From: an uncultured Actinomycetes bacterium
GTDB taxonomy: Bacteria > Actinomycetota > Acidimicrobiia > Spongiisociales > ZC4RG35
NCBI GenBank assembly: GCA_963730285.1
Contig: CAVSQY010000014.1
Coordinates: 11,992-75,991 of the forward strand
Direction: 5' to 3'
Length of the DNA: 64,000 bases
Of this stretch, positions 3,581 through 58,543 are shown piece by piece. Under the pieces are notes generated by a model, which saw only the letters and a list, made by a program, of their open reading frames with translations, had not been told where the DNA came from and searched no databases. Each line of letters begins with the position of its first letter. Within the stretch, counting starts at the first letter, position 1. The position numbers and the translations under genes were made by a program.

Positions 3581-4039
3581 GTGACCGAGTGGAACACATG
3601 GCTTCTATTCATCCACGTGGCCAGTGCGATGGTCTGGCTCGGCGGTGGCATTGCGATGTGCCTGCTTGGCTACCGGGCTCGTGGAAGCGCCGACGCCGCC
3701 GAGTTGGGAGACTTCGGTCGTACTCTTTCCTACGTCGGTCTGCGGGCGTTCACTCCTTCCGTGGTGCTCGTACTTGTAACCGGCATATGGATGGTCCTGG
3801 CTGGAACGGGAGATTTTGGCGATCTCTGGGTCATCATCGCCCTGGTGGCCTTCGTGACTGCGTTCCTCATCGGCGCCGTCTATCTGAGTCGCCAAGCCCT
3901 TCTCCTGGAACGTTTGAGTCGAGACGGCGACACCCCAAGGGCACGCCTCGCACTGCAACGTTGGCTGACCGGCTACAGCACCGTGCTCCTCGTTCTCCTC
4001 GTCGCTCTCTGGGACATGATCTTCAAGCCGGGTATATGA
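3581..4039 (+). CDS. Small integral membrane protein (4 predicted TM helices), hypothetical
   Basis: 152-aa ORF with four hydrophobic stretches (WLLFIHVASAMVWLGGGIAMCLLGY ... VLLVLLVALWDMIF); AT-rich upstream region 3391-3580. Confidence 0.6.
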   Translation: MTEWNTWLLFIHVASAMVWLGGGIAMCLLGYRARGSADAAELGDFGRTLSYVGLRAFTPSVVLVLVTGIWMVLAGTGDFGDLWVIIALVAFVTAFLIGAVYLSRQALLLERLSRDGDTPRARLALQRWLTGYSTVLLVLLVALWDMIFKPGI

Positions 4040-18003: not shown

Positions 18004-18538
18004 CGGCCACCTCCAGACCCAGCTTCTCGGCGAGAGCCCGACGCCCACGAAACAGATGCACCTTGGCCGTGGCCGGACTGCACTCGAGGATCTCGGCGAT
18101 CTCGGCCACGGGACGGTCCTCGACGTAGAAAAGCGCGATCGTCTGTGCCTGCCGGTCCGGGAGCTTTCGAACGGTCTTCCAGAACTCCTCGTCCTCCGGC
18201 TCGAGCTGGGGAAAGGGCTGGTGACGTTGCCCGGCCAGACGGGCCAGGGCCTTCGCCTCGGCCGCCTTGCGTCTAAATCCCGATATCGCCTTGTTCGCCA
18301 CGACTCGTCTCACCCATGCTCCCGGTTTGTCATACCCGCTGATCCGATCCCATCGCTGGTGGGCGGCGATGAAGGCCTCCTGTGCCAGGTCTTCGGCACC
18401 GAGACGACTACCCGAAAGGGCGTATGCCAATCCGACGACCTCCCTGAACTCCCTGCGATAGAAGCTCTCGAAAGACTCATGACTGGTGACCCGCTCCTCA
18501 TCTAGTTGTGCCGACTCGGGCTTGGTTTCTGCGGTCAC
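17993..18538 (-). CDS. ECF (sigma-70 family group IV) RNA polymerase sigma factor
   Basis: Region 2 (FESFYRREFREVVGLAYALSGSRLGAEDLAQEAFIAAHQRWDRI) and region 4 HTH (LPDRQAQTIALFYVEDRPVAEIAEILECSPATAKVHLFRGRRAL). Confidence 0.85.
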   Translation of the reverse strand: MTAETKPESAQLDEERVTSHESFESFYRREFREVVGLAYALSGSRLGAEDLAQEAFIAAHQRWDRISGYDKPGAWVRRVVANKAISGFRRKAAEAKALARLAGQRHQPFPQLEPEDEEFWKTVRKLPDRQAQTIALFYVEDRPVAEIAEILECSPATAKVHLFRGRRALAEKLGLEVADEE

Positions 18539-22399: not shown

Positions 22400-22474
22400 C
22401 AGTCCGCCTTAGGGCTACTGAAACCCAAGATACTCATGTGGACCGGGGTGGGGCGGCCGCGGCCCCGTCTGCCG

Positions 22475-25400
22475 TCAACTCAAGGTGAGGTCGGCGAAAT
22501 TGGCCCAGGATTTGCCGAATTCCCACCAGCCCTCGACAAGGGGTCGCCTCAGGGAGGTGTTCCTCGTGTAGACCAATGGGATCACCGCAGCCAGCTCGGC
22601 CACGGCGAGTCGGTCTGCCTGGTGGAAGAGCCCGAGCCGGGTCCGCTCGTCGCGCTCCATTCGGGCCCGCTCGACCAGGTCGTCGAATGCCTCGCTGGAG
22701 AATCTCCCGGTGTTGTCTGCTCCCTCGGTGTGAAGCAGCAGCCTGAGGAAGTACTCGGGATCGGTGTATCCCGGATACCACCAGGTTGGAGCGATATCGA
22801 CATCTTCCCAAACCTCACGAAGTCTTTGGGAGGAGGGGCCCAGAGTCGTGGTCTCCACCTCGATGCCCAAGTGTCGGCGCCACTGGCCGGCGGCTCTCTC
22901 CACCAGAGTCGTATAGACGATGTGGGGTATATCGAAGGCTGCCATCCGGATCGGCGCATCCGGTCGTGCCTGGCCGACGAGCGACCGCGCCAGGTCGACG
23001 TCGAAGACCGGTGCGACGTCGGGCGTGTGCCCGGCAAGTGCCGGGGGGACCACGCCACCGGTGGCCGGGATCAGATGCTCGCCCAATCCTTCGCACAGGG
23101 CGGCTCGATCCAACGATTGGGCCAGGGCGAGGCGAAGACGGGGATCGGCCATGTTCTTTCGGCCATGGTTGAGAACGAAGTAGATGAGCCCTGCCGTCGG
23201 TTCCCGATTCACCAGATCGGTTGGGATCTGCTCCGACCCGGCGCCGTCCCATGGCCCGCTGATCCAGGCGAGGTCGTGTCGTTCGTCGAGAAAGCCCTCC
23301 ATGACCTCGTTGACGGGCGCGGTGTGCCACACCACGGTCTCCACGTTTCCGAGACGATGGCCGACATAGTCGGGTCGGCGATCCAGGACGACACGATTGG
23401 CCTTGTGCTCAGTCCGACGGAAGGCTCCGCTGACCACCTCGACATCGAGATCGCACCACCGCTCGGGTTCCGCTTCGATGACATGACGGGGCTGAGGGCC
23501 GCAGTCCGGCCGGTTCAACATGCCGAGGAAGTAAGGAGCGGGCGCATTCAATGAGAACTGAACGACCCTGTCGTCCAACGCTCTCACGCCGATCAGGTCG
23601 GGGTCACTGCTGCGACCAAGCGCATGGTCGGCGGCGCCTTCGAGGACATAGAGCATGGCCACGCTCACCCCGGGGGAGTCGGGGTCGAGGTTGCGTTTCA
23701 GACCGAACTCGACGTCGTGGGCGGTGAGTGGGGCCCCGTCAGACCATTTGAGCCCGTCACGGAGGGTGAACCGGTAGATGAGACCGTCGTCGGAGATCTC
23801 CCAACGCTCCGCCAGGGAGGGGACGATGGTGTCGTCGGGCCATCTCTCCACCAGACGATCGAAAAGCGCCATCTGCAGCTGGATGTCCTGGAGGGCGTAG
23901 GAGCGGACCGGGTCGGGGACATCGAAAAAGGCCGGACCGGCGAAAAGGAGCGTCTCGGTGGCCTCCTGGCTCGGTGCGGGGCTCCACAGCTCGAAGGCCC
24001 TCTGATAGGTGGCGTTCGCCTCGGCGAACCGGAGGGCGGTGTGATAGGCCAGCCCCAACTTGAACAGGACCAGCGTGGTGGTGGGCGTGTCTCCACTCCC
24101 CTCCAGGAGAGGGAGAAGCTGTCGATAGTGCTCGATTGCCTCCTCCAAGGCATGGCGTCCCCGAGCCAGATCGCCTGCCCGTAGCAACGCTGGGGCGGCC
24201 CGGTCGTCGACCCCTGCCGCCGTCCAATGCCGGGCTAGAAGCTCAACGACCTCTTCGTCATTCCCCTCGAATTGGCGTTCCAGCCACTCGGCGGCATGTC
24301 GGTGCAGGGCCCGTCTCCTACCCTCGGGAAGGGTGCGATAGGCGGCCTCACGGGTGAGGGCGTGCTTGAACAGATATTCCGCCTGCGGCCATCGGCGTGC
24401 CTCGACCAGCAGGTCAGACCTCAAGAGGTCCTGGACGGCGGGAAGGACCCCACCTCTCTCGTCGGCGATGCCCTGGAGCAGGGGGAGGCCGAAGCTCCGG
24501 CCCAGCACTGAGGCCGAGGTCAGCACCATGTGGGTGGAAGGATCGAGACGGTCGATGCGCGACTGGACCACCTTCTCCACCGTCTCAGGCACGGTCAGGG
24601 CAGCGTCACGGTCGAAGACCCATCCCGACCCCGAAGGGGTGAGGGCGCCCTCATCGATCAGCGACCCGATCAGCTCCTCGAGATAGAAGGGGTTCCCCTC
24701 GGAGAGGTCGAGGAGCCGCCCGGTGGTCTCCTCGGGGAGATCGGCGGTGCCGAGTAGCGAGGAAAGCATGGCTCGTTGGTCGGAGTCGCCGAGGGCGCCG
24801 AGTGTGATCTCGGTGATCAGATGGGGCACCCGATGCCGGGCCGCCTCTGCGATGCGCCACGACACGTGACCGGGAGACGGGCGGCTGCTGACCACATACA
24901 GGATGCGGTGACTCTCGGCGAGTGAGGTCAGATTCCCTAGAAGCTCCACCGAAGTCGGGTCGGCCCAGTGGGCGTCTTCGATAACCATCGCGGTGGGGGA
25001 CCTCTCTGAGATGGCAGTGAGCAGCTCTGCCACCACCTCGAACGTGCGGAATTGGATTGCTTCCGGCGCCAGCGATAGCCGGGTCTGCTGGTCGGGGGTC
25101 AGGCTGAGACCGAGAAGACGCGTCAGATAGGCATACATCGGCTCGGCCGGCTCGTCCAGCAGCTCTTCGAGGCGGTTGTGCAGCGTTCGCCGGGAGGGGA
25201 GGTCCTTTTCGTCGATGCCCAACCCGAGCCATGACCGGATCAGGTCGCGGAACGGCCAGTAGGGGGTGGCCTCACCGTAGGGATCACAGTGACCGAGCAG
25301 CCAGGTAAACCCGATCCCGGAAGGCGACCGGCGCAGCTCGGAGATGATCCGAGTCTTTCCCACGCCGGCGTCGCCACTGAGTACCAGGACTCCGCCGATG

Positions 25401-26740
25401 CCGCGTTCGAGCGATTCGAGCATGTGGCCCGCCTGGGCCATCTCTGACTCACGACCGACAAGTGGGGCGCGGAGACGTCTTCCCAGCCTTGCCTTGTCGG
25501 CGGTTCGGCGCACCGCCGTCGGCCGCCACATGACTCCCGATCCCGAAGAAGCGGACTCCTCCCAGTCGAAGGCGTCGATCATGAGACGACGGGTGTGGTC
25601 GTCGACCAGCACCGAATGGGGGCCTGGGTCGCTGAGCATTGTCTGAAGCGGTCCCTCTTCCATGCCGAAACCGGTCTCGAAGGGCAGTGTCACCGGCAGT
25701 GTGGACACGACACACCGGCCCTCACCGGTGGGCCCCAATGTCTCCCCGACGGCCAGCGCTGCCCGGATGGCTCGATAGGTGTCGTCCTCACGGGCGATGG
25801 GTGCCCCGAAGACGGCAAGGGCACGCGTCCCGTCTTCGTCGACGATCGTCCCTCCGAATCGGGCCAATGCCGAACGCGTCGCCTCTAGTGCGGCGGCCGA
25901 GCCGGTGGCCACCAAGAGCAGGGTGGCGAGCCGGTTCCCTGGGGGCAATGGCCGACCGATGACAGTTGCAGGACGGGCCTGCGGTCGATGTGACGGGGAT
26001 GGCGAGAGAGTCGGGTCCTGTGCCAGGATCCGATCGAGCAGGTTCTGGAGCTCGGGCCCAGGCTCGATCCCCAGTTCCTCGATGAGAAGCGCGCGCACGG
26101 TGTCGAAGGCCCGAAGTGCGTCGGCCTGCCGGCCCGAACGATAGAGCGCCAGCACGTATCGGCTCCACAAGTCCTCACGCAACGGGTGCTCTTCGAGCAG
26201 GGAGTGGAGGTCGACTGCGGCCTGGTCGTGACTGCCGGATCGGAGTTGGGCATCGGCCATGTCGACCTGGGCCTGAAGACGCACCGCCTCCAATCTGGCC
26301 TTGAGCGGGCGGACGACGTCGGCCTCGCGGGCGTCCACCAGGGGCTCGCCACGCCACCAGGAGAGGGCCTCACCGAGCCGACCGACCGTCGTCTCCGGGT
26401 CCTCCCACGTCGCCTCCCTGGCCTCGGTGACTGCCAGGACGAATCGGTGGGCGTCGACGTCTGATGTCTCGAGTGCCAGCTGGTAGCCGGGACCCTTGGT
26501 GGCGATCAACCCTTCGGGGAGCACCGAGCGCAGATGGTGGATGTAGGTCTGAAGTGCTTTGGCCGCCGTCGCCGGAGGGGTTTCGCCCCAAAGGCCGTCG
26601 ATGAGCCTGTCGCTGGTGATCAACCTTCCCACGTCGGCCGCCAGCAACGTCAGAAGGGCGCGCTCCATCGGACGACTGACCTCGATTCGGTGGCCATCGT
26701 CACTCAATTCCAGCGGTCCGAGCACCCCGACGAGCACCAC
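22475..26740 (-). CDS. 1421-aa multidomain one-component regulator: SARP-type winged-helix DNA-binding + BTAD / degenerate class-III cyclase-like domain / STAND (NB-ARC-like) P-loop ATPase / helical-TPR region / C-terminal solute-binding-protein family 5 (SBP_bac_5) domain
   Basis: aa 1-250: LGPLELSDDGHRIEVSRPMERALLTLLAADVGRLITSDRLIDGLWGE + BTAD (…YRSGRQADALRAFDTVRALLIEELGIEPGPELQNL). aa 270-390: cyclase-homology-like RLATLLLVATGSAAALEA...FGGTIVDEDGTRALAVFGAPIAREDDTYRAIRAAL (metal-binding Asp positions not conserved). Walker A VLVLSGDAGVGKT (aa ~451-463), Walker B MVIEDAHWAD, GNPFYLEEL motif. aa ~935-1421: ...LAERWEISDDGLIYRFTLRDGLKWSDGAPLTAHDVEFGL = canonical SBP_bac_5 signature (DppA/OppA/NikA family). 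No signal peptide, so the SBP domain is cytoplasmic. Confidence 0.85.
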   Translation of the reverse strand: MVLVGVLGPLELSDDGHRIEVSRPMERALLTLLAADVGRLITSDRLIDGLWGETPPATAAKALQTYIHHLRSVLPEGLIATKGPGYQLALETSDVDAHRFVLAVTEAREATWEDPETTVGRLGEALSWWRGEPLVDAREADVVRPLKARLEAVRLQAQVDMADAQLRSGSHDQAAVDLHSLLEEHPLREDLWSRYVLALYRSGRQADALRAFDTVRALLIEELGIEPGPELQNLLDRILAQDPTLSPSPSHRPQARPATVIGRPLPPGNRLATLLLVATGSAAALEATRSALARFGGTIVDEDGTRALAVFGAPIAREDDTYRAIRAALAVGETLGPTGEGRCVVSTLPVTLPFETGFGMEEGPLQTMLSDPGPHSVLVDDHTRRLMIDAFDWEESASSGSGVMWRPTAVRRTADKARLGRRLRAPLVGRESEMAQAGHMLESLERGIGGVLVLSGDAGVGKTRIISELRRSPSGIGFTWLLGHCDPYGEATPYWPFRDLIRSWLGLGIDEKDLPSRRTLHNRLEELLDEPAEPMYAYLTRLLGLSLTPDQQTRLSLAPEAIQFRTFEVVAELLTAISERSPTAMVIEDAHWADPTSVELLGNLTSLAESHRILYVVSSRPSPGHVSWRIAEAARHRVPHLITEITLGALGDSDQRAMLSSLLGTADLPEETTGRLLDLSEGNPFYLEELIGSLIDEGALTPSGSGWVFDRDAALTVPETVEKVVQSRIDRLDPSTHMVLTSASVLGRSFGLPLLQGIADERGGVLPAVQDLLRSDLLVEARRWPQAEYLFKHALTREAAYRTLPEGRRRALHRHAAEWLERQFEGNDEEVVELLARHWTAAGVDDRAAPALLRAGDLARGRHALEEAIEHYRQLLPLLEGSGDTPTTTLVLFKLGLAYHTALRFAEANATYQRAFELWSPAPSQEATETLLFAGPAFFDVPDPVRSYALQDIQLQMALFDRLVERWPDDTIVPSLAERWEISDDGLIYRFTLRDGLKWSDGAPLTAHDVEFGLKRNLDPDSPGVSVAMLYVLEGAADHALGRSSDPDLIGVRALDDRVVQFSLNAPAPYFLGMLNRPDCGPQPRHVIEAEPERWCDLDVEVVSGAFRRTEHKANRVVLDRRPDYVGHRLGNVETVVWHTAPVNEVMEGFLDERHDLAWISGPWDGAGSEQIPTDLVNREPTAGLIYFVLNHGRKNMADPRLRLALAQSLDRAALCEGLGEHLIPATGGVVPPALAGHTPDVAPVFDVDLARSLVGQARPDAPIRMAAFDIPHIVYTTLVERAAGQWRRHLGIEVETTTLGPSSQRLREVWEDVDIAPTWWYPGYTDPEYFLRLLLHTEGADNTGRFSSEAFDDLVERARMERDERTRLGLFHQADRLAVAELAAVIPLVYTRNTSLRRPLVEGWWEFGKSWANFADLTLS

Positions 26741-27672: not shown

Positions 27673-27761
27673 ACAGGGCGAGGCCGTCGACAAGAGAGGA
27701 GACCGGTCATCACCGGTCTCCTCTCGCGTGAAGATGGATCTTCAGATACCGTGGCTTTGAA

Positions 27762-36192: not shown

Positions 36193-36250
36193 ATGCCCGA
36201 CGGTGTGATCGGGGGATCCCCCGATCACACCACCGAACCTGGAGTGAATC

Positions 36251-48704: not shown

Positions 48705-48791
<87 letters not shown>

Positions 48792-48900
48792 GGGGTTTCG
48801 GCCGGGAAGGGCTTCTGCTCGCAGTCGAGAAACAGCCGATTGCAACCCGATTGCAACCCTTTCAATCGCACGACTGTTCGATCAGGCTCGTCTGGCCCCC

Positions 48901-49149
48901 TCAGTCGAGGGCTAGGAAGGACGCCGTTTCGTCCTCGAGGAAGGCCATGATCGTGTCGTGGCCGTCTTGGATCGCCTGCTCGATGTCGCTTGTCGTGCAG
49001 TTGCCCAACCGGACCCAGATCACTTTGGGTGGGGGCCTGGACACCAATGCCCTCTGGTGGAATTCTTCGTCCTTCGACACGATGGCGAATCCGTGATCGA
49101 GCGCATACCTCCAAATCTCGTCGTCGGTCGCGTCGCCAAGATCGAGCAA
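48901..49149 (-). CDS. DUF5615-family (PIN-like) protein; annotated TTG start is probably too late (frame stays open and homologous up to ~49270)
   Basis: ORF ...LDLGDATDDEIWRYALDHGFAIVSKDEEFHQRALVSRPPPKVIWVRLGN. In-frame upstream sequence reads ...ASLDANISRRLIPRISGTFPDSSHVAL matching the DUF5615 N-terminus (LLDENLP.RL......GHDV) but with no ATG/GTG/TTG, overlapping the DUF433 gene end. Confidence 0.5.
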   Translation of the reverse strand: MLDLGDATDDEIWRYALDHGFAIVSKDEEFHQRALVSRPPPKVIWVRLGNCTTSDIEQAIQDGHDTIMAFLEDETASFLALD

Positions 49150-49228
49150 GGCGACGTGAGACGAGTCGGGGAAGGTTCCAGAGATTCGAGGTATCAGTCG
49201 ACGCGAGATGTTCGCATCGAGGGAAGCT

Positions 49229-49450
49229 TCACGCGCCGGAGACGAGCTTGCGTTCGCGATCAGCAGCGAACGCCAGACATGCCCGGATGTCCTCTTGCTC
49301 GAGCTCGGGGAAGTCGCTGAGGATCTCCTCTTCGCTCATCCCGGACGCGAGGTAGTCGAGGACGTCATAGACAGTGATGCGCAGCCCTCGAATGATGGGC
49401 TTGCCTCCGCGCTTGCCCGGTTCGGTCGTAATGCGGTCCTGATGGTTCAC
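49229..49450 (-). CDS. DUF433 family protein (partner of DUF5615; TA-like pair)
   Basis: GTG start; VNHQDRITTEPGKRGGKPIIRGLRITVYDVLDYLASGMSEEEILSDFPELEQEDIRACLAFAADRE. The ORF-track N-terminal extension to 49630 is spurious. Confidence 0.6.
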   Translation of the reverse strand: MNHQDRITTEPGKRGGKPIIRGLRITVYDVLDYLASGMSEEEILSDFPELEQEDIRACLAFAADRERKLVSGA

Positions 49451-49681
49451 AATCTCACGCGATTCTAGGTGTGCTGGTGGCGGATCAAGGCCCGAGGAAG
49501 GAGTGCGTTGCTCATGCCTCAACTGGACGATTGTTCGATGAGCGCGGCGACAGCCTCGGCCACCAGGGGTTTCGACAAGCCCCTCGACCAGATCTTTGGC
49601 TACCGAGCCGATGAGCAGACCTGGGCACACATATTCACAGAAAAGTCTGAAGACGATTCTTTAGTCTGGGCGGCACCCGCC

Positions 49682-50017
49682 CTAAAGCGCGAGTTTCAGG
49701 TTCACCAGCTCGCGGATCAGGTCTTCGTCCGGGGGTCGGTCGATTGGGAAACGCAGAGTGCCCTTGGACCAGTCGTAGTCAGCGAGCTTCGCAGGGTCGA
49801 CCATCTCGAGCACCGAGCCGGAGTGAGGGAAGTAGCTGCAGTGACCCTTCGAGTAGGAGTAGCCGGCCACCGGCTTCCCTTGGATCAGGAACGCCGGCAC
49901 CGAATAGGACATGCCCTCTTCTCCCTCGGGCAGGATTCTGGACAGCATCGCCCTGACGGCCCTGAGTGACGTCTGCTGGGGCTCTGGTGCCGAGTCGATG
50001 TACTCGTCGACTGTCAT
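49682..50017 (-). CDS. DUF1801 (YdhG-like) domain protein
   Basis: MTVDEYIDSAPEPQQTSLRAVRAMLSRILPEGEEGMSYSVPAFLIQGKPVAGYSYSKGHCSYF. Confidence 0.6.
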   Translation of the reverse strand: MTVDEYIDSAPEPQQTSLRAVRAMLSRILPEGEEGMSYSVPAFLIQGKPVAGYSYSKGHCSYFPHSGSVLEMVDPAKLADYDWSKGTLRFPIDRPPDEDLIRELVNLKLAL

Positions 50018-50027
50018 CGGCGCGACA

Positions 50028-50387
50028 TTATCTCCCGTAGGTGGATGGACGACCCTGTTTGAGCTTGCGCCAGCCACCAACTCGATTGTTCGCGATGACC
50101 TGTCGGAACACGGCCGCCAAGGCTGGAGCGTTGATGGTCTCGGTTTCTCTCACAGCAACGGTTCTTCCGGTCTTGGTGTCGTGACCCCCAGTGATGATTT
50201 GCGCCGGATCGGGCACGATCCCGCCGTCATACAGGAAGATGCTGACGTGATCGTTGGCCGCCAATAGGGCGCAAATGTTGCCCTCCAAGACGAAGTAGGA
50301 CTGGACCCGCCTCTTGATGGTTTCTTCGACCTCGGAGTCCACATCTGCACCAATTGGCGAACTTCCCGACATATCGCCCGCTGCCAC
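50028..50387 (-). CDS. Hypothetical protein
   Basis: ORF only; no recognisable motif. Confidence 0.3.
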   Translation of the reverse strand: MAAGDMSGSSPIGADVDSEVEETIKRRVQSYFVLEGNICALLAANDHVSIFLYDGGIVPDPAQIITGGHDTKTGRTVAVRETETINAPALAAVFRQVIANNRVGGWRKLKQGRPSTYGR

Positions 50388-50496
50388 TCAGGGAGTGGGT
50401 CGATGTAGTCGTCAACTCGAGGGTCTCTAGTTCAACTCAGGTCCGAAATGCTATCCGACGACGCTGAATAATCTGCTGAGTCGAGGCGGCTCGAAG

Positions 50497-50546
50497 TGCC
50501 CTTTCTGTGAACTGGATTGGGTGGGTCTTGCCGGTTTCGGTTCACA
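50497..50546. promoter_or_regulatory. Copy 1 of a conserved ~45-nt palindromic motif GTGAAC-N33-GTTCAC (core GGGTGGGT...CCGGTTT.GGTTCAC), upstream of the methyltransferase gene
   Basis: gtgaactggattgggtgggtcttgccggtttcggttcac; 39/45 positions identical to copy 2 at 51232-51281 with identical spacing. Confidence 0.5.
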
Positions 50547-50591
50547 GAGACGACCTCGGCTCCATTTCAGGCTGAAGGGAAGAGGACAAAC

Positions 50592-51230
50592 GTGTCGGAG
50601 GAATCAGGTGGGCGGGATCCGACGAGTCATGAGCGGATGACGGGTCTGCCCTGGGATGCGTCATACCAAGACGGTCCTGCTCCTTGGGATATCGGCCGGC
50701 CCCAACCGGCGGTGGTGCGTCTGGCATCTGAGGGCGGATTCACCGGACCGGTGCTCGATGCGGGCTGCGGGACCGGCGAAAACGCTCTGCATCTATCCTC
50801 GATGGGCCTGAAGGTCCTGGGCGTCGATGTGGCCGAGACGGCATTGGCGATCGCAAGGGAGAGGGCCATCGACCGGGGGATCGAGGTCGAGTTCGCGGTG
50901 GCCGACGCCATGCAACTGGAGCGTTTGGGGCGTAAGTTCGAAACGGTGCTCGATTGCGGCCTTTTCCACACATTCGACCAAGACGAGCGATCTGGCTACT
51001 TGGCGAGTCTCTCGTCGGTCACCAAGCATGGTGGGGTCCTGCAACTGCTGTGCTTCAGTGACGCCGGCCCCAACGTCGGCCCCCACCCGATCAGCCGGGG
51101 TGAGCTGAGAGCGGCGTTCGACCTGGGGGGTGAATGGGAGGTCGCCGCCGTCGAACCAGATCGTCTCCAGACCAGATTTCACGACGAGGCCGGCGCCCCG
51201 GCCTGGTTGGCGACAGTCAGACGCCGTTAG
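50592..51230 (+). CDS. Class I SAM-dependent methyltransferase (TPMT-like)
   Basis: GTG start with SD gggaagagga; motif I VLDAGCGTGENALHL, ...LGVDVAETAL..., motif post-I AVADAM. The ORF-track start 50517 overlaps the upstream motif. Confidence 0.75.
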   Translation: MSEESGGRDPTSHERMTGLPWDASYQDGPAPWDIGRPQPAVVRLASEGGFTGPVLDAGCGTGENALHLSSMGLKVLGVDVAETALAIARERAIDRGIEVEFAVADAMQLERLGRKFETVLDCGLFHTFDQDERSGYLASLSSVTKHGGVLQLLCFSDAGPNVGPHPISRGELRAAFDLGGEWEVAAVEPDRLQTRFHDEAGAPAWLATVRRR

Positions 51231-51231
51231 A

Positions 51232-51281
51232 TCCGTGAACGGAATCGGGTGGGTTTGACCGGTTTTGGTTCACGGAAGGGC
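51232..51281. promoter_or_regulatory. Copy 2 of the GTGAAC-N33-GTTCAC motif, upstream of 51310..52314
   Basis: gtgaacggaatcgggtgggtttgaccggttttggttcac. Confidence 0.5.
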
Positions 51282-51309
51282 ACCGGGCCGATATACCCTC
51301 GCCACTCAC

Positions 51310-52314
51310 GTGATCCTCGATTCACCCAGGTCGCGAAGAAAGGCGTGGAGACGTCTCTTCTGGCCGGCCCTCATCACCGTTGTCGCAATTGTCGCCGTAG
51401 CGGTCTCCGCGGCAGGACGTGACACGCGTCTCGACCTCGCCTATCTGGATGCCGTGCGAGATCAGAGCGCAGAGTTGTCGTTGGACGGTGATGCGTTGCG
51501 GGTCGTGATCTCGCGACTTTCCCGGATCGAGCGGGATGAGTTGGTCACTGCAATCGACACGATCCGGACCGATCTCCAGGTCGGCCAGGATCTCGTCGAC
51601 CAGGGACCTCCATCTGATTCGCTGATAGGGATCAATTCCCTCTATCGGCAGGCGATACTGGCCTGGACCGTGGGCGTCAGTGGCTTCGAGTCGGGGGTTC
51701 TCACAGCCGCAGACGATCCATTGAACACGGTGGTCGTCGACAACCTCGCTAACGCACTCGCCGAGATCAGGGACGGTGACCGTCTCTACGAGGATCTGGT
51801 GCGTGAGCTGGGCATGGACGAGATCCCCGATCCCGTCGGTTCGATGCCGAGCGTGGTGTTGATGCCGGCCGACGGTGAACTGGCCAGTTTGGCCGATGCA
51901 TATGTGGTGGCGGCGCGGTCGGTGAACGCAATGATCGCCCTCCGTCCCGGTCTTGGATTGAGTCAGATCACATCCGATCCACTGTGGAACGTGAACCCCG
52001 ACGACCAGACTGTGCTGCCTGCCACCGACCTGGTCACGTTCTCGGTGGTCGTGAGCAACAAAGGCAATGTCGCCAGTGACCCGACTCCACTCCGTCTGAC
52101 CCTGTCCGGAAACGGTGACCCCGTCGTGGCGACCCAACAGGTTCCCGTCCTCGAGCCCGGCGAGCAGACGGCTATCGACTTCGTCGACATGGCTGTGGTG
52201 GCGGGAGGCCCGTTTGAGGTGAAAGCCGAGCTCGAGGTCATCCAGTTGGACGTGGACCTCGACGACAACGCTTTGGCTGTCATCTTCATGGTCAACGAGG
52301 CGCAGAGCGGCTGA
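51310..52314 (+). CDS. Membrane-anchored hypothetical protein with C-terminal CARDB-like beta-sandwich domain
   Basis: TM LFWPALITVVAIVAVAVSAAG; C-terminal DLVTFSVVVSNKGNVASDPTPLRLTLSGNGDPV...GEQTAIDFVDM (CARDB-like). Confidence 0.5.
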   Translation: MILDSPRSRRKAWRRLFWPALITVVAIVAVAVSAAGRDTRLDLAYLDAVRDQSAELSLDGDALRVVISRLSRIERDELVTAIDTIRTDLQVGQDLVDQGPPSDSLIGINSLYRQAILAWTVGVSGFESGVLTAADDPLNTVVVDNLANALAEIRDGDRLYEDLVRELGMDEIPDPVGSMPSVVLMPADGELASLADAYVVAARSVNAMIALRPGLGLSQITSDPLWNVNPDDQTVLPATDLVTFSVVVSNKGNVASDPTPLRLTLSGNGDPVVATQQVPVLEPGEQTAIDFVDMAVVAGGPFEVKAELEVIQLDVDLDDNALAVIFMVNEAQSG

Positions 52315-52340: not shown

Positions 52341-53588
52341 ATGATCGATCCACGACTCATTCGCGACGACCCGGACACTGTCCGTGAGTCGTTACGTCGA
52401 CGCGGCTCGAAGATCGACCTGGACGCTCTGATCGGTTTGGAGGTTGCCGCCCGCTCCGCCCGGCAGAGAGCCGAAGAGCTGCGGGCGAGCCAAAAGGAGG
52501 CGGGGAGGCAGATCGCAACTCTCGAAGGCGAGGACAAAGAGCGGGCGATAGCATCGGTGGGGGAGTTGGCCGAAGAGGTCAAAACCTCCTCCGCGGAGGC
52601 AGACCGGCTCGACCGGGAGCTCGATGAGCGGCTTCTCGAAGTGCCCAACCTCGTTGCGACCGATGCCGCAGATGGCTTCACCGAAGAAGACAATCTCGAG
52701 ATCAAGCAGGTCGGAGAGCCTGGCCCGGCAGCAACCGACTACGAGGCGCTGGGGGAGAGTCTCGACATCATCGATACCGTACGTGGGGCCAAGGTCTCCG
52801 GCAGCCGTTTTGGCTATCTGAAAGGCAAGGGAGCCCTGCTCGAGTTCTCCCTGGTCCGTTGGGCCATGGACCACCTGGTCGAGTCGGGGTTCACCCCGAT
52901 GATCCCCCCGGTCCTGGTCCGCGACGAGGCCCTGGTGGGCACCGGGTTCTTCCCCGAGGCGAGGGAGCAGGTCTACGAAGTCCCCAAAGACGAGTTGTTC
53001 TTGGTTGGCACGGCCGAGGTCCCGCTGGCCGCCTATCACGGTGACGAGATCTTCCAGCCTGAGCAGCTACCCATCAGGTATGCCGGCTTCTCCACGTGCT
53101 TTCGCCGGGAGTCGGGCACCTACGGGAGGGACACCGCCAGCATCTTCCGGGTTCATCAATTCGACAAGGTGGAGATGTTCGTCTTCATCGACCCTCAGGC
53201 CTCTGCCGACGAGCACGATCGCCTGCTGGAGGTGGAGGAGTCGCTGGTCCGTGAGCTGGAGATCCCCTACCGCGTGGTCAATGTCGCCGCCGGGGATCTT
53301 GGAGCCTCGGCAACCAAGAAGTACGACATCGAGGCCTGGTTCCCCGGTCAGCAGCGCTATCGGGAGATCACCTCCTGCTCCAACACGACTGACTACCAGG
53401 CGCGTCGGCTCAAGGTCCGGCAGCGAACCGACGGTGGGAACCAGATAGTCCACACCCTCAATGGGACCGCCTGTGCAGTCGGGCGAACCATCCTCACTCT
53501 CCTCGAGAATCATCAGCAGGGCGACGGGTCGGTGGTCATCCCGAAGGCCCTTCGCGATTACACCGGTTTCGATGTCATCGGGCCGTGA
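52341..53588 (+). CDS. serS: Seryl-tRNA synthetase
   Basis: N-terminal coiled coil (MIDPRLIRDDPDTVRESLRRRG...), class II motifs (FRRESGTYGRDTASIFRVHQFDKVEMF; ...GTACAVGRTILTLLEN). Confidence 0.9.
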   Translation: MIDPRLIRDDPDTVRESLRRRGSKIDLDALIGLEVAARSARQRAEELRASQKEAGRQIATLEGEDKERAIASVGELAEEVKTSSAEADRLDRELDERLLEVPNLVATDAADGFTEEDNLEIKQVGEPGPAATDYEALGESLDIIDTVRGAKVSGSRFGYLKGKGALLEFSLVRWAMDHLVESGFTPMIPPVLVRDEALVGTGFFPEAREQVYEVPKDELFLVGTAEVPLAAYHGDEIFQPEQLPIRYAGFSTCFRRESGTYGRDTASIFRVHQFDKVEMFVFIDPQASADEHDRLLEVEESLVRELEIPYRVVNVAAGDLGASATKKYDIEAWFPGQQRYREITSCSNTTDYQARRLKVRQRTDGGNQIVHTLNGTACAVGRTILTLLENHQQGDGSVVIPKALRDYTGFDVIGP

Positions 53589-54274
53589 GTGAGGTAACCG
53601 ATCCGATTTTTGCCCGGATCGCCGCCCGCTACGACCGGATCAACAGCATCCTCTCCCTGGGGCGGGAGAGGAAATGGCGCGCCACCGGCGTGGACATGCT
53701 TCGTCCCGGCCTGGTTCTCGACCTCGGATCGGGGACCGGCGCCACCGACTTCGGGCAGAGGGATCCGGTCGATCTCGACCCAGTTCTGGAGATGCTCGCA
53801 CTCAGCCCCGTCAGTCGGCGGGTGGTGGGGGTAGGGGAGACCCTTCCGTTCGCCGATTCGTCGTTCGACGCGGTGTTCAGCGGTTTCGTGTTCCGCAACC
53901 TGACGTCCGTCGATCGCACGTTGAGAGAGATCCGGCGTGTCCTCGAGCCGGGTGCGGTGGCCACCGTCATCGATCTGTCCCGCCCCAAGAACCCCATTCT
54001 CCGGGGAATCCATCGGCTTGCGACCGCCATCGTCTTGCCGCTGGTGGGTCTGCTCTTCGCCGGCGCACCGAGGGAGTACTGGTACCTGCACCGATCCCTC
54101 GACTCACTCGCTCCTCCGGAACAGCTGTTTCGGGACGGCCCCCTCGTCCTCGAAGAAATCTGGAGAATGGGGCTGTTCGGCTTCGTCTACGGAGTCAGGT
54201 TGAGGAAGCCGCCGGAGGCAGCGGCTTCGGATCCACCAGACCGGCGCGCCGCCACTTCGGAGGCTGCCCGTTGA
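53585..54274 (+). CDS. UbiE/MenG-like class I methyltransferase (divergent)
   Basis: GTGA overlap with the serS stop; N-terminal IFARIAARYDRINSILSLGRERKWR resembles the UbiE family motif (FDRIA.RYD..N...S.G....W); LDLGSGTG. Confidence 0.55.
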   Translation: MSEVTDPIFARIAARYDRINSILSLGRERKWRATGVDMLRPGLVLDLGSGTGATDFGQRDPVDLDPVLEMLALSPVSRRVVGVGETLPFADSSFDAVFSGFVFRNLTSVDRTLREIRRVLEPGAVATVIDLSRPKNPILRGIHRLATAIVLPLVGLLFAGAPREYWYLHRSLDSLAPPEQLFRDGPLVLEEIWRMGLFGFVYGVRLRKPPEAAASDPPDRRAATSEAAR

Positions 54275-54629
54275 CGGCCTGAGAGCTGATCGTGCCCCCG
54301 CCTTCGAGGCCTCGTGCACGCCGTCGAGATCGGCCGCCAACTCGGGTCAGGCCGCCCTACGTCACCCGGTGCGATCCACTTAGGGCTGCTTCCTTCCGGA
54401 TCTGACCCGATTCATGGTGCTCCGCCGCGCAGGACCCAACCGTCAACATCGCGTGTCCGACCTCAGGGCAGTGAGCCCCGACGACACGTTGCCCCTCGGG
54501 CGGGGAACTCAGCCCCGCGTGGAGAGGATTTCGGGTTCAGGGCACCCCTAGCGCCCCGCCTATCACGATCGCGACGAAGGCTACCCAACGGGCACTCCTA
54601 GGCGAATAGGTCTTCGGGGTCCTGTTACC

Positions 54630-55808
54630 TTGCTCGGGCCGATGAGCACCCATCGTTTCGGGCCCGATTTCACGAGCATCTTCCTGGCCGGCCTGCTCCA
54701 GGAGGTCTCCTTCCAGTTGATGGTGCACTTTCCGGGGTACGTCCAGAGTTTGGGGGCGACCGAAGCCTTGATCGGGCTGCTCTATGCCGGGGGTGCGATC
54801 ATGGCGCTCCTCTTCCGCCCGTTGTTGGGACGGGCGCTCGACCTCACTCATCGGCGCACGGTGCTGTTGTTCTGTGGAGCGATGAACGTCACCGTGGTGG
54901 CGCTGCTTTCGTTGACCAGCCAGTGGGGCGTCGTGTTGTGGGCTTTGTTCCTCGTGCACCGGGTGTTTCAAATCGCCCTCTTCACCACGATGCTCACCTA
55001 CATGGCCGACTCTCTACCGGTTGAGCATCGGACACAAGGGCTGGCCCTATTCGGCCTTTCCGGGTTGGTCCCGATCGCCATGGGAGGGGTCATCGGCGAC
55101 CTGGTGATCGACGGGCTGGGGTTCGGTGCCCTTTTCCTGCTTGCGGCCGCGGCGGGCCTGATTTCCTGGTCGATCGTGTGGAGCCTTCCGGTGCTTCCCG
55201 TGATGAGTCGCCGGCCGCGTCGTGGCTTCTGGTCGGCATTCGCCCAACGCAACCTGCTCCCGCTGTGGTGGATCACCTTCTGTTTCAGCATCGGGATGGA
55301 GACTCTGTTCACATTCACCCGTACCTATGTGGATGACCGTCAGGTTGGGTCCACCGGTCTGTTCTTCGGCATCTATGGGGTGACTGCCGCCGCCATGAGG
55401 CTGGTCGGTGGGAACAGGTACGACCGGGTCCCACATCGTCCGCTCGCCGTCGCGGCTCTCATCTCTTATGGGCTAGGTCTCGGTCTACTGGCCGTGGCCG
55501 GCTCGATACCGATCCTGGCCTTGGCAGCCTTCTTCGCGGGTATGGCCCATGGCGGTCTCTTCCCACTGCTGTCCAGTCAGGTTGTGGCGAGGGCTCGGAC
55601 CGCCGAGCGGGGCTCCGCCATGGCGGTCTTCACCTCGATCTTCGACATCGCCCTGCTGGTGGCCGCTCCTTCAGTTGGCGGACTGATCGATGGGTTCGAC
55701 TACGAGGTTGCCTTTGCCGCGGTTGCGGGCGTCTTGGTCGTCGGATCGGCGGTATATGCGATATGGGATCGGCGCATGGTGGCGGCAGAGGCGATCGCCG
55801 CCGCCTGA
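54630..55808 (+). CDS. MFS transporter
   Basis: 12 hydrophobic segments; MFS-type loop motifs (GRALDLTHRRTVLL; GNRYDRVPHRPLAV). Confidence 0.8.
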   Translation: MLGPMSTHRFGPDFTSIFLAGLLQEVSFQLMVHFPGYVQSLGATEALIGLLYAGGAIMALLFRPLLGRALDLTHRRTVLLFCGAMNVTVVALLSLTSQWGVVLWALFLVHRVFQIALFTTMLTYMADSLPVEHRTQGLALFGLSGLVPIAMGGVIGDLVIDGLGFGALFLLAAAAGLISWSIVWSLPVLPVMSRRPRRGFWSAFAQRNLLPLWWITFCFSIGMETLFTFTRTYVDDRQVGSTGLFFGIYGVTAAAMRLVGGNRYDRVPHRPLAVAALISYGLGLGLLAVAGSIPILALAAFFAGMAHGGLFPLLSSQVVARARTAERGSAMAVFTSIFDIALLVAAPSVGGLIDGFDYEVAFAAVAGVLVVGSAVYAIWDRRMVAAEAIAAA

Positions 55809-55809
55809 G

Positions 55810-56280
55810 TCATCGACGCTCGGAGAAGAAATCCTGGAGGAGCTGGCGTGACTCGTCGGCCATGACCCCCTCGATCAGGTCGACACGGTGGTTGAGACGA
55901 GCATCCTGGGGGATGTTGTAGAGGGACCAGGATCCCCCCGCCTTGAGATCAGCTGCGCCGTACACGATTCGATCGAGGTGAGCGAGCACGGACGCACCAG
56001 AGCACATGACGCACGGCTCCAGTGTCACCACCAGAGTGTGCCCGGCCAGCCTCCAGTCAGCGAGCTGACGTGCCCGGGCCGAGAGGACCAGCAGTTCGGC
56101 ATGGGCGGTTGGATCCGACAGCTCCTCACGCCGATTCCGGTCGATTCCCACCTGGTTGCCCTTCTCATCGAGCAGCACAGCACCCACGGGCACGTCGCCA
56201 TGGGCGGCAGCCTCCCGCGCTGCCTCCAGAGCGGCGCGCATTGGCTCGAGGAATGATTCGGGGGATATGGGTTGAGTCAT
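55810..56280 (-). CDS. tadA: tRNA-specific adenosine deaminase TadA (CDA fold)
   Basis: HAELLVLSARARQL (H[AC]E) and PCVMCSGA (PCxxC) zinc motifs. Confidence 0.85.
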   Translation of the reverse strand: MTQPISPESFLEPMRAALEAAREAAAHGDVPVGAVLLDEKGNQVGIDRNRREELSDPTAHAELLVLSARARQLADWRLAGHTLVVTLEPCVMCSGASVLAHLDRIVYGAADLKAGGSWSLYNIPQDARLNHRVDLIEGVMADESRQLLQDFFSERR

Positions 56281-56327
56281 CGACGTGGATTATCCTTTCT
56301 CTGCCTGCCGGTCCTGGCGGGAATCCC

Positions 56328-56418
56328 GGAGGGATCGCATAGTTTGGTCTAGTGCGCGGCACTGGAAATGCCGTTGGGGGTTTACGCTCCCTCGAGGGTT
56401 CAAATCCCTCTCCCTCCG
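56328..56418 (+). tRNA. tRNA-Ser (anticodon GGA)
   Basis: GGAGGGATCGCATAGTTTGGTCTAGTGCGCGGCACTGGAAATGCCG...GAGGGTTCAAATCCCTCTCCCTCCG; long variable arm; acceptor GGAGGGA/TCCCTCC. Confidence 0.85.
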
Positions 56419-56511
56419 CGAGTCATGAGTGGTAGGCCCAAGCCCGACCCGCTGACCTGCGGCCTACAACCTATGACTTACCGTCGGCGACATCTCCGGA
56501 TGTCGCCGCTC

Positions 56512-56602
56512 GGAGGGGTCGCATAGTCCGGTCTAGTGCGCGGCACTCGAAATGCCGTAGGGGGCTGACGCTTCCTCGAGGGTTCGAATCCCTCCCCCTC
56601 CG
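56512..56602 (+). tRNA. tRNA-Ser (anticodon CGA)
   Basis: GGAGGGGTCGCATAGTCCGGTCTAGTGCGCGGCACTCGAAATGCCG...GAGGGTTCGAATCCCTCCCCCTCCG. Confidence 0.85.
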
Positions 56603-56667
56603 CGACCGGGACCGACGCTCGTCGGTCCCAACGGTGCTCCAAGTACGGTCTCGATGACGCGCAACCT

Positions 56668-56757
56668 GGAGGGGTGTCCGAGTGGTCTAAGGAGACGGTC
56701 TTGAAAACCGTTGGGCCCAATAGGGTCTCGTGGGTTCGAATCCCACCCCCTCCGCCA
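56668..56757 (+). tRNA. tRNA-Ser (anticodon TGA), CCA encoded
   Basis: GGAGGGGTGTCCGAGTGGTCTAAGGAGACGGTCTTGAAAACCGTTGGGCCCAATAGGGTCTCGTGGGTTCGAATCCCACCCCCTCCGCCA. Confidence 0.85.
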
Positions 56758-58356
56758 ATGTCGACCAAGCTCCAAGTTGGGGTCTCCCGACCCATTGGGT
56801 GTCGGCGCTCGCTGGTCGATCAAGGACCCGTGTCGTTCTTCCAGAATTCTGCCCGCAAAGAATCGGCCCGCGACCTGATTGCCTCTACCGGTGGATCCCG
56901 GGAGTTGCGTGAGGACAAGGACGAATTCCTTCGCGCCGCCTACCACCACATCAGTAATCCGCTTGGCGCCATCGTCGGATTTTCCGAGATGCTCCGGGAT
57001 CGTTCCCGCGATATCAGCGCCGGGGTCCGCAACGAGGTGATAGAGCTTCTCACGCTCCAGGCCCAGGAGACAGCTCGACTGGTCGATGACCTGCTCGTCA
57101 CGGCGACCATCGATCTCTCCGAGCTCGAGATCACGACCGGCGAAGTCGACTTGCGCATGGTTGTCGAGAGCGCCACCTCAGAGTGGGCATCACGTCAGCG
57201 CTCCCGGCTCACGGTCAGCGGCAATTCGAAGGCCCGGGCCGACCAGCACTGGGTCACTCACATCGTTCGAAATCTTCTGCGCAATGCCGTTTCGTTCGGC
57301 GGAGACAACATCAGCGTTCGGATCACCGAGGGTCATCACCGGGTCGTGCTCGAGGTGATGGACGACGGTGCCGGTGTCTCTCCCGAGGATGTAGAACAGA
57401 TCTTTGATCCCTATCACACGAGATCCGGACGGAGCTCTTCTGATCCCTCACTCGGCCTCGGCCTGTTCGTGGGCCGTCGCCTGGCCCGGGCAATGGGCGG
57501 GGACGTCCAATACATGCGGGAAGACGGCATGACCGTGTTCGAGCTCTCCCTGCCGCGGGTGAGTCTGCAGACATCATCGTGGGAGCCGATGCCCGATGTG
57601 GTCATCGATCCCATGGAGGGGCGGCCGACTCAGGAGTCCGTGTCCAGGATCGTCGACACTGGCGGGCCCGAGATGGTCTATCAGCCGATCATGGATCTGA
57701 GGGCCCACCGAGTCGGCGACAGTCGAACCATCGGGTACGAGAGCCTGGCGCGGTTCCCATTCTCCACGCCACCCGTCTGGTTTGAGATGGCGGGCTCGTT
57801 GGGGATGCGGTTGGACCTCGAGTTGGCGGCGATCACAGCCGCCATCGCCGGCTTCGCCCCATCCAATCACGACGGATTCCTCGCCCTCAACCTTTCCGAC
57901 ACCACGTTGACATCGTCACGTCTGGTCGAGTCGCTGGACGGGCTCGATCCGGGGCGTATCGTCCTGGAGCTATCCGAGGTGGCCGCGATCAAGAGCTACG
58001 AGGCGACCCGTCGACATGTGGACGCTCTCCGTGACGCGGGGATACGCCTCGCGGTGGACGATGTGGGATCGGGCGAGATCGATCTGTGGCAAATCCTTCG
58101 ACTGGAGCCTGCCGTGATCAAGATCGACATGTGCCTGGTTCGAGACATCGAGCACACGCCCCGTAACCGGGCCTTGATTCGTGGCATGGCAGCCATGGCC
58201 CAGGACCTGGGGACCATGGTGATCGCCGAGGGTGTCGAGTCGACTGAGGAAGAAGAGCAACTGCTGCATCTGGGCGTCGAGTACGGGCAGGGTTACCTTC
58301 TCGGCAAGCCACGTGCCCTCCAGTGGAAGACCCGGGTGCTCCAGGACGTCGATTGA
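56758..58356 (+). CDS. Histidine-kinase-like (HisKA + HATPase_c) protein fused to a C-terminal EAL (c-di-GMP phosphodiesterase) domain
   Basis: H-box RAAYHHISNPLGAIVGFSEML; HATPase VTHIVRNLLRNAVSFGG...GLGLFVGRRLARAMGGDV. EAL domain YQPIMDLRAHRVG...GYESLAR (ESL variant of EAL), ...LALNLS..., LELSE, AVDDVGSG (DDFGTG-like), IKID, VIAEGVES, GQGYLLGKP. First ATG (56758) abuts the tRNA-Ser CCA; an in-frame GTG at 56830 is an alternative start. Confidence 0.7.
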   Translation: MSTKLQVGVSRPIGCRRSLVDQGPVSFFQNSARKESARDLIASTGGSRELREDKDEFLRAAYHHISNPLGAIVGFSEMLRDRSRDISAGVRNEVIELLTLQAQETARLVDDLLVTATIDLSELEITTGEVDLRMVVESATSEWASRQRSRLTVSGNSKARADQHWVTHIVRNLLRNAVSFGGDNISVRITEGHHRVVLEVMDDGAGVSPEDVEQIFDPYHTRSGRSSSDPSLGLGLFVGRRLARAMGGDVQYMREDGMTVFELSLPRVSLQTSSWEPMPDVVIDPMEGRPTQESVSRIVDTGGPEMVYQPIMDLRAHRVGDSRTIGYESLARFPFSTPPVWFEMAGSLGMRLDLELAAITAAIAGFAPSNHDGFLALNLSDTTLTSSRLVESLDGLDPGRIVLELSEVAAIKSYEATRRHVDALRDAGIRLAVDDVGSGEIDLWQILRLEPAVIKIDMCLVRDIEHTPRNRALIRGMAAMAQDLGTMVIAEGVESTEEEEQLLHLGVEYGQGYLLGKPRALQWKTRVLQDVD

Positions 58357-58450
58357 CGCGGCCTTCGAAACAGCCGGTCACCGCTCACAGGCTCGTTTCC
58401 ACATAGCCTGGGTAGCCAATAACGTACGACATCGGCGATGACGCCGTATT

Positions 58451-58543
<93 letters not shown>

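Follow-up and report, generated by a model that had tools for sequence, protein, structure and literature searches.

The early genes of phage T7 are separated by RNase III processing hairpins, which lie between cistrons and define and stabilise the ends of the mRNAs. The attC sites of integrons have the consensus R'' = RYYYAAC and R' = GTTRRRY, and the half-sites TGTGAA...TTCACA, known from Rex operators, are also those of CRP-type sites. In Actinobacteria, the Tuberculosis Rho-independent terminator (TRIT) comprises 147 sequence-conserved palindromic hairpins that are located at stop codons and restricted to Mycobacterium (PMC3152330). In attC sites the triplets AAC and GTT are conserved where the R'' and R' boxes end on the inner side, L boxes and spacers are joined by a variable terminal structure 20-100 nt long, and sites of one integron are more alike than those of different integrons; in the same 2016 survey all Actinobacteria genomes were without complete integrons (PMC4889954). 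The Rex operator (ROP) has the consensus TTGTGAAW4TTCACAA (PMC2883068). The paired element reported here, found in a 64-kb window (the whole stretch of DNA that was analysed) of an uncultured species of Acidimicrobiia, belongs to no described family, though it is of a familiar kind.

Two related palindromic elements are present in the window, both on the + strand. Copy 1 (50504-50548, TCTGTGAACTGGATTGGGTGGGTCTTGCCGGTTTCGGTTCACAGA) and copy 2 (51232-51276, TCCGTGAACGGAATCGGGTGGGTTTGACCGGTTTTGGTTCACGGA) are 45-nt imperfect palindromes of the form TCYGTGAAC-N27-GTTCACRGA, and a repeat search of the window finds them in direct orientation, 728 nt apart and identical at 36 of 45 positions (80%). 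Each is closed by a perfect inverted repeat of 9 bp, TCTGTGAAC-N27-GTTCACAGA in copy 1 and TCCGTGAAC-N27-GTTCACGGA in copy 2, and the boxes GGGTGGGT and CCGGTTT occur in both at the same spacing. The flanks do not align, the 3' flank being GACGACC in copy 1 and AGGGCAC in copy 2. The pair is real and far beyond chance: GTGAAC-N25-29-GTTCAC has two matches in the 64-kb window versus 0.02 expected, and the full boxed pattern, allowing up to three mismatches, is matched there only by copies 1 and 2, versus 0.00 expected. The original prediction of a palindromic element of ~45 nt occurring twice in the window, with these two boxes at identical spacing and with unrelated flanks, is therefore borne out. 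Its measurements have been revised: copy 1 is shifted by ~7 nt (extents of 50497-50546 and 51232-51281 had been given), 27 nt, not 33, separate GTGAAC from GTTCAC, the terminal inverted repeats are 9 bp and perfect rather than 6 bp, and the identities number 36/45 rather than 39/45. Several other candidates were considered and dismissed on sequence and Pfam results: a CRISPR-like repeat (just two copies, separated by 683 nt), a template/variable repeat pair of a DGR (no adenine specificity in the differences and no reverse transcriptase), a retron, and a pair of DnaA boxes (a 6/9 match only).

As + strand RNA, 60-nt pieces containing either copy fold into one long hairpin (-25.4 kcal/mol, z -3.1 for copy 1; -24.1 kcal/mol, z -3.4 for copy 2). 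The - strand folds are weaker (z -1.5 and -2.3, respectively), and the + strand ranks above the - strand with DNA folding parameters as well. The predicted ability to form a hairpin thus holds for both copies, and more strongly on the + strand, in whose sense both flanking genes are read. From the base upward, the hairpin of both copies begins with the perfect 9-bp base, followed by a K.G position and three pairs; next come a U.U and then a G.G mismatch, with one pair between them, and two G-C pairs that close a 9-nt loop, UGGGUYUKR. Standard pairs number 16 and 15 on the + strand and 13 and 14 on the - strand (copies 1 and 2), and the + strand folds better because three G.U pairs in copy 1 and one in copy 2 have A.C mismatches as their counterparts on the - strand. 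While the two boxes, their spacing and the two internal mismatches are invariant between the copies, nine positions differ. In the stem these comprise one double compensatory change (U-A to C-G, or T-A versus C-G as DNA), three single changes that keep the pair by way of G.U wobble, and one that breaks a U.G pair; the remaining three are in the loop. When nine random substitutions were simulated on copy 1 with the observed transition/transversion mix, 6-9% of trials retained at least 15 of the 16 pairs, and a covariation shuffle control was uninformative with 3 sequences only. The pairing changes are thus suggestive, not strong, as a sign of selection. A scan for intrinsic terminator and promoter consensus sequences finds no site at either copy, and because no U-tract is present at either one, neither is a canonical intrinsic terminator. 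Neither ribosome-binding site lies inside a hairpin or is obviously sequestered by it.

Pfam scans and gene calls on near-identical contigs give the gene order around the copies. From the left, an fhaA/FHA/PP2C/FtsW/PBP/PknB cluster (-) is followed by tRNA-Leu(CAG) (48705-48791, +), a DUF5615/DUF433 toxin-antitoxin-like pair (-) and two DUF1801 genes (49681-50387, -); to the right of these are copy 1, a SAM-methyltransferase gene (50592-51230, +), copy 2, a CARDB-like gene (51310-52314, +), serS, a UbiE-like methyltransferase gene and the SRP RNA (-). The sole gene between the copies encodes a class I SAM-dependent methyltransferase of 212 aa, TPMT/TehB-like, and the CARDB-like gene, a lineage-specific core gene of Acidimicrobiia, encodes a membrane protein of 334 aa whose homologues are confined to that class. 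Copy 1 is situated in the intergenic region between a DUF1801 gene (-) and the divergent methyltransferase gene (+), with 43 nt from its end to the GTG at 50592 that starts the latter. Copy 2 starts 1 nt past the methyltransferase stop codon (TAG, 51228-51230), so that the pair brackets the methyltransferase gene, and it ends 33 nt before the CARDB-like GTG at 51310; both distances agree with the 30-50 nt that had been predicted between each copy and a start codon. The 28-nt segment immediately upstream of the methyltransferase start, with the leader and Shine-Dalgarno sequence (50564-50591, +, ATTTCAGGCTGAAGGGAAGAGGACAAAC), resembles the leaders of three methyltransferase homologues (L042, L048 and L057) in unrelated contexts, by eye and unscored, and the acquired payload would therefore begin ~15 nt past copy 1. 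Taken with the position of the stop codon, this resemblance leaves the payload within 15 nt of the left copy and 1 nt from the right one. No gene of either strand has its 3' end at copy 1, and the possibility that this copy terminated a lost gene was rejected, as no + strand ORF ends there. Plain hairpins with no T-run follow genes elsewhere in the window (27694-27725, 36202-36231 and 49667-49683), and compared with these plain GC hairpins the paired element has a greater length, a higher AT content and a more elaborate form.

The surrounding DNA, compared with that of relatives, alters how the pair is to be read. In the relative L046 the order is fhaA (-), tRNA-Leu, CARDB-like gene and serS, with the CARDB-like GTG start 3 nt past the tRNA 3' end, so that the segment 48792-51287 is missing there. 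By BLAST, the left homology of L046 to the window stops at 48791, and right homology resumes at 51288-51296 in all four relatives, whose CARDB-like proteins are 87% (L043 and L044), 71% (L045) and 64% (L046) identical to that of the window; the left neighbour differs in each. These break points make the 2.5 kb at 48792-51287, within which both copies and the two DUF1801 genes lie, specific to this lineage. Because homology to the relatives resumes only at 51288, 11 nt past copy 2, this copy is inserted DNA and not an ancestral CARDB-like promoter or leader. Copy 2 is the last feature of the insert. An attempt to derive its right arm from the CARDB-like upstream region of L043 and L045 or from tRNA-Leu was rejected, since local alignments left of 51288 were no better than shuffles.

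The insert is bounded on the left by tRNA-Leu(CAG), and its right edge is marked by a degenerate, displaced tRNA-Leu 3' end (51293-51309, +, ACCCTCGCCACTCAC) recognised by alignment with the L046 tRNA and with L043 and L045. A 21-bp direct repeat, consisting of the tRNA-Leu 3' end and 9 nt downstream, is present at 49554-49574 (+) and is 20/21 identical to 48780-48800; the two repeats bracket the toxin-antitoxin islet, and the one at 49554-49574 divides this islet on its left from the DUF1801/methyltransferase islet on its right. These tRNA repeats are traces of repeated integration at tRNA-Leu. The nearest homologues of the methyltransferase outside the species are 75-80% identical and mostly unnamed, those with names being Actinomycetia (Microbispora, Nocardia, Streptomyces, Mycobacterium), and the DUF1801 protein nearest copy 1 is ~80% identical to Actinomycetia proteins; the named Actinomycetia among the homologues of the two proteins include Streptosporangiaceae. 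Identities of ~80% to Actinomycetia homologues point to horizontal acquisition of both the methyltransferase gene and the adjacent DUF1801 gene. The two genes are not neighbours in the four methyltransferase-homologue loci compared for gene content or in the DUF1801-homologue locus L049. A Pfam scan of 47 window ORFs found no integrase, transposase, recombinase or HUH protein.

Within the data searched, no more than two copies of the element are known, both in a single uncultured species. Both are present in 7/7 strain contigs from six samples, which are 98.4-100% identical to the window. None of the seven shows any change in copy 2. For copy 1 there is a second haplotype that differs at two positions, one difference turning U.G into C-G (a better pair) and the other breaking the second basal pair; these are two of the four SNPs in its 204-nt intergenic region, and copy 1 is therefore not visibly more constrained than its surroundings. 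Neither a mismatch pattern nor a covariance model found a further copy in the ~60 intergenic regions of the 64-kb window. The element is absent upstream of the CARDB-like gene in L043, L044, L045 and L046, and around the methyltransferase homologues L042, L048 and L057 and the DUF1801 homologue L049. A covariance model (R1) of both copies, searched without filters against the window, the relatives' loci and the methyltransferase- and DUF1801-homologue loci found only copy 1 (80.6 bits) and copy 2 (72.7 bits), contrary to the expectation of conservation in related genomes.

Wider searches gave the same picture. Among 185,579 GTDB species genomes, the exact pattern GAAC-N5-7-GGGTGGGT-N3-5-CCGGTTT occurs at 35 loci, all of them chance matches or an unrelated repeat of Gracilibacillus suaedae, and none with a GGTTCAC arm. 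The pattern GGGTGGGT-N3-5-CCGGTTT-N0-2-GGTTCAC has one chance match in the JGI metagenome collection, on an AT-rich contig with no likeness past the pattern, and an exact-pattern scan of IMG/VR yields 6 matches, none with palindromic arms. These scans fix 18-22 bases, so diverged copies would be missed by them. BLAST of the bracketed unit (50400-51300) against plasmids and of copy 1 against phages returned nothing relevant, and nothing relevant was found in the literature on GTGAAC/GTTCAC inverted repeats. At the gathering threshold, Rfam recognises only the SRP RNA and tRNAs in the whole window; at E<=10 it has no match over either copy in 50380-51400. The pattern search that was expected to reveal more copies thus revealed none in the window, GTDB, the JGI metagenomes, IMG/VR or the phage and plasmid sets.

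The original prediction had read the element as a shared cis-regulatory operator or structured leader. The hairpin part of that interpretation stands. Conserved, shared cis-regulation of the two genes does not: with no further copies in the data searched, and with the orthologous CARDB-like upstream regions (87%, 71% and 64%) lacking the element, a conserved two-gene regulon signal is not supported, and the element is probably a local repeat of an ordinary sort, not a signal conserved for regulation. A double-stranded DNA operator, at which a symmetric regulator would bind the GTGAAC/GTTCAC arms and perhaps the inner boxes and so co-regulate the methyltransferase and CARDB-like/serS genes, is an improbable reading. 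The perfect 9-bp inverted repeat would suit it, as would the copy 1 arms TGTGAA...TTCACA, shared with CRP-type sites, and the 3' arm of copy 2, which as the sequence reads lies roughly where the -35 box of the CARDB-like gene would be. However, half-sites 27-29 bp apart are incompatible with one Rex or CRP dimer, and orthologous CARDB promoters have no such site. The copy 1 arms TGTGAA/TTCACA equal Rex half-sites (PMC2883068), but the distance between them is 29 nt where the operator has 4, and in copy 2 the arms are CGTGAA/TTCACG. In addition, a symmetric compensatory difference is unexpected between two sites of one protein, the G.U-type changes and the asymmetry between strands speak for a single-stranded fold, no regulator gene is found in the islet and no Rex gene among the window ORFs scanned, and the downstream genes are not typical Rex targets. 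A further reading is a riboswitch-like leader RNA that would bind a ligand or protein, its G-rich loop and mismatches forming a pocket that controls the downstream genes. The preference for the + strand, the location of the copies 33-43 nt upstream of start codons, and a loop and boxes counted as invariant while stem positions vary are consistent with such a leader. Set against this are the absence of any Rfam family even at E<=10, the lack of conservation outside one species, ribosome-binding sites that are neither included nor obviously sequestered, and downstream genes that are functionally unrelated, one of which gained the element only via the insertion; a leader of this kind is very improbable. 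Restriction to one species and to two copies agrees with a non-functional relic, either a 45-nt unit duplicated once or a selfish palindromic repeat, MITE- or REP-like, that came from a donor not yet sampled and has decayed, with incidental hairpins. The element was not found in the relatives or the methyltransferase-homologue loci examined, the strain SNPs in copy 1 occur at or above the intergenic rate and one of them breaks a stem pair, and the covariation signal is not significant. Yet after 20% divergence the perfect 9-bp stem, the spacing, the two mismatches and the GGGTGGGT and CCGGTTT boxes have all been kept, and copy 2 is the same in every strain contig; a relic is an unlikely explanation, though the next in rank after the one preferred below.

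Another possibility is that the copies are sites of recombination or transposition, in which folded single-stranded DNA hairpins would end a mobile 728-bp methyltransferase cassette in the manner of attC, IS200/IS605 or paired MITEs. As in attC arrays, direct-orientation imperfect palindromes closely enclose a single compact ORF oriented toward the downstream copy, AAC and GTT stand at the inner ends of the basal stem in both copies (GTGAAC...GTTCAC; compare PMC4889954), unpaired positions are conserved, and the copies are ~80% alike, in keeping with the likeness of attC sites within an integron. The triplets alone fit, however: the arms (T/CGTGAAC and GTTCACA/G) depart from the R-box consensus, and with 27 nt in total between the triplets and a 9-nt apical loop, the element has neither the length nor the R-UCS-L architecture of attC. 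Among the 47 window ORFs scanned there is also no IntI, the integron integrase. Similar hairpins in one orientation at both ends of a short unit, the right one ending ~11 nt from the unit edge, recall IS200/IS605 elements and MITE pairs; the acquired islet at a tRNA hotspot, whose edge is 11 nt from the end of copy 2, would also suit mobility. In contrast to IS200/IS605 and PATE elements, neither TnpA (Y1 HUH) nor TnpB occurs among the window ORFs scanned and no extra copies were found, and in contrast to these elements and MITE pairs the cargo encodes a methyltransferase, the repeat measures just 45 bp and no target-site signature is seen. A 9-bp terminal inverted repeat is present, as in a MITE, but the flanking dinucleotides (TT/GA for copy 1, GA/AG for copy 2) are not direct repeats and there are just two copies. 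With none of the window ORFs scanned encoding an integrase, transposase or HUH protein, no target-site duplication, no other cassette or copy in the collections scanned by exact core pattern or BLAST, methyltransferase homologues at 77-80% identity that are not flanked by the element, and a filled site in 7/7 strain contigs, a recombination site is quite improbable. The narrower proposal, that the hairpins would be attC-like single-stranded gene-cassette sites in Acidimicrobiia and the 728-bp unit a mobile cassette beside a tRNA-Leu hotspot, is very improbable; a hairpin-based cassette site in Actinomycetota would be notable if true, this being a phylum without complete integrons in the 2016 survey (PMC4889954).

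The explanation that we tentatively prefer, at somewhat less than even probability, is that the element may be a small, lineage-restricted palindromic repeat of REP/TRIT type that arrived with the islet or spread in it and whose copies may serve as transcript-boundary hairpins. The repeat would have come in with, or spread within, a horizontally acquired islet that integrated at tRNA-Leu. On a + strand transcript the copies would fold into long imperfect hairpins, one in the 5' leader, as copy 1 plausibly lies within that of the methyltransferase, and the other just past the methyltransferase stop codon. There they may shield the mRNA of the foreign gene at its 5' and 3' ends, be sites of its processing or bring about weak termination, and would thereby insulate it. 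The analysis shows the repeat itself, its capacity to form hairpins with a strand bias, the bracketing, the islet context and the absence from the other data searched; transcription through the copies and any effect on RNA stability or termination are inferred, and activity at the RNA level as transcript-boundary hairpins would be the most likely mode.

Several lines of evidence argue for such REP/TRIT-like hairpins: a repeat far beyond chance, greater stability on the sense strand of both flanking genes, one compensatory pair change with three wobble-compatible single changes, tight bracketing (~15 nt before the leader, by eye, and 1 nt past the stop), the location of both copies in an insert bounded by tRNA-Leu and a displaced tRNA 3'-end remnant, and the T-run-free hairpins that this genome places after other genes. 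TRIT provides a precedent in Actinobacteria, also with no strong U-tract (PMC3152330). The parallel with TRIT, REP and BIME, drawn from descriptions, lies in a sequence-conserved imperfect palindromic hairpin of a few tens of nt that is restricted to a lineage. TRIT hairpins are at or next to stop codons, which here is true of copy 2 only, 1 nt past the methyltransferase TAG, while copy 1 is near no stop codon of a gene on either strand. Copy number also differs, as TRIT has 147 copies per genome and REPs number in the hundreds, whereas here there are 2 in 64 kb, adjacent to one another; with two copies known and none elsewhere in the 64 kb, a dispersed repeat family is not demonstrated. The RNase III hairpins of T7 are likewise repeated, similar, imperfect and long and flank individual cistrons, but the present case consists of two sites in a chromosomal islet known from sequence only. 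Counting against REP/TRIT-like hairpins are the position of copy 1 at no gene's 3' end, the missing U-tract, an element that exceeds the plain GC hairpins of this genome in length, AT content and complexity, the 6-9% of random simulations that match the pair retention, and the lack of visible constraint on copy 1 among strains.

Because the element is known from two copies in one uncultured species, its wider significance is small. The useful result is a correction: there is no conserved regulon signal, and copy 2 is part of the islet, not of the CARDB-like gene. If the hairpins do define or stabilise the transcript, the locus would be a small example of foreign genes arriving already insulated at the RNA level and, if true, would join TRIT as a second instance in Actinobacteria of a hairpin conserved in sequence at gene boundaries.

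In the window, tRNA-Leu(CAG) is a hotspot of integration at which remnants have accreted (48705-49590 and 51288-51309). The 3' end of the tRNA is directly repeated over 21 bp (48780-48800 versus 49554-49574, 20 of 21 positions identical), and these repeats bracket an islet of approximately 770 bp whose sole content is a toxin-antitoxin-like pair (DUF5615/DUF433). Another degenerate copy, of the T-arm and acceptor, is located at 49566-49590, and a displaced remnant of the tRNA 3' end is found at 51293-51309. No integrase is left at this hotspot among the 47 window ORFs scanned. The only mobile-element-like gene noticed in the window encodes a DUF222 protein (6424-7761, + strand), the family of the mycobacterial 13E12/HNH-associated repeat proteins, and it is distant from the 45-nt hairpin palindrome that brackets the SAM-methyltransferase gene.

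Inspection by eye revealed a similar leader of ~25 nt, (G)ATCAG-N3-4-AGGGAAGGGGA-N-GAAG, immediately 5' of the start codon of the methyltransferase (50564-50591) and of its homologs in L042 (~3975-4000), L048 (~2972-3000) and L057 (~468-494). These genes lie in unrelated genomic contexts, and the likeness, again judged by eye, reaches past a Shine-Dalgarno sequence.

The pattern scan for the core of the 45-nt element also matched a dispersed repeat, CAAAATAACTACTTYGAACAGGACCGGGTGGGTTTTCCCGGTTTTTCTTA, at no fewer than 12 sites of a single Bacillota genome, Gracilibacillus suaedae (loci L003, L005, L010, L017, L018, L020, L022, L024, L028, L030, L031 and L033). This repeat contains a terminator-like hairpin with a T-run and is unrelated to the 45-nt element. 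Within the window, a perfect 15-bp loopless palindrome, GGTGTGATCGGGGGA/TCCCCCGATCACACC (36202-36231), begins 10 nt past an OsmC-like ORF, and a perfect 14-bp stem (27694-27725) follows an ORF ending at 27672. Because a T-run is absent at both, these gene-end hairpins look like the I-shaped terminators typical of Actinobacteria.

Elsewhere in the window, two adjacent and very large ORFs of 927 and 1421 aa (19616-26740, - strand), the former without a Pfam match at E<=1e-4, are found near an ECF sigma factor gene (17993-18538) and genes for Glucodextran_B/Big_6-domain proteins. In the stretch 52341-58543, four tRNA-Ser genes with different anticodons (GGA, CGA, TGA and GCT) lie within 5 kb downstream of serS, and a large SRP RNA is encoded on the - strand at 54290-54568. 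By sequence comparison, the locus of the relative L046 is homologous to this serS/tRNA-Ser stretch, tRNA-Ser matches included.

In the same relative, whose CARDB-like protein is 64% identical to that of the window, the CCA end of tRNA-Leu is followed 3 nt later by the GTG start codon of the CARDB-like gene (L046 5900-6010). The tRNA and this gene may therefore share a transcript, from which tRNA 3' processing would release the gene as a nearly leaderless mRNA. In the lineages that carry the island (the window, L043 and L045), GTCCCCCCT in the displaced tRNA fragment has become ATATACCCT or ATCTACCCT, which resembles a -10 box that has newly arisen.
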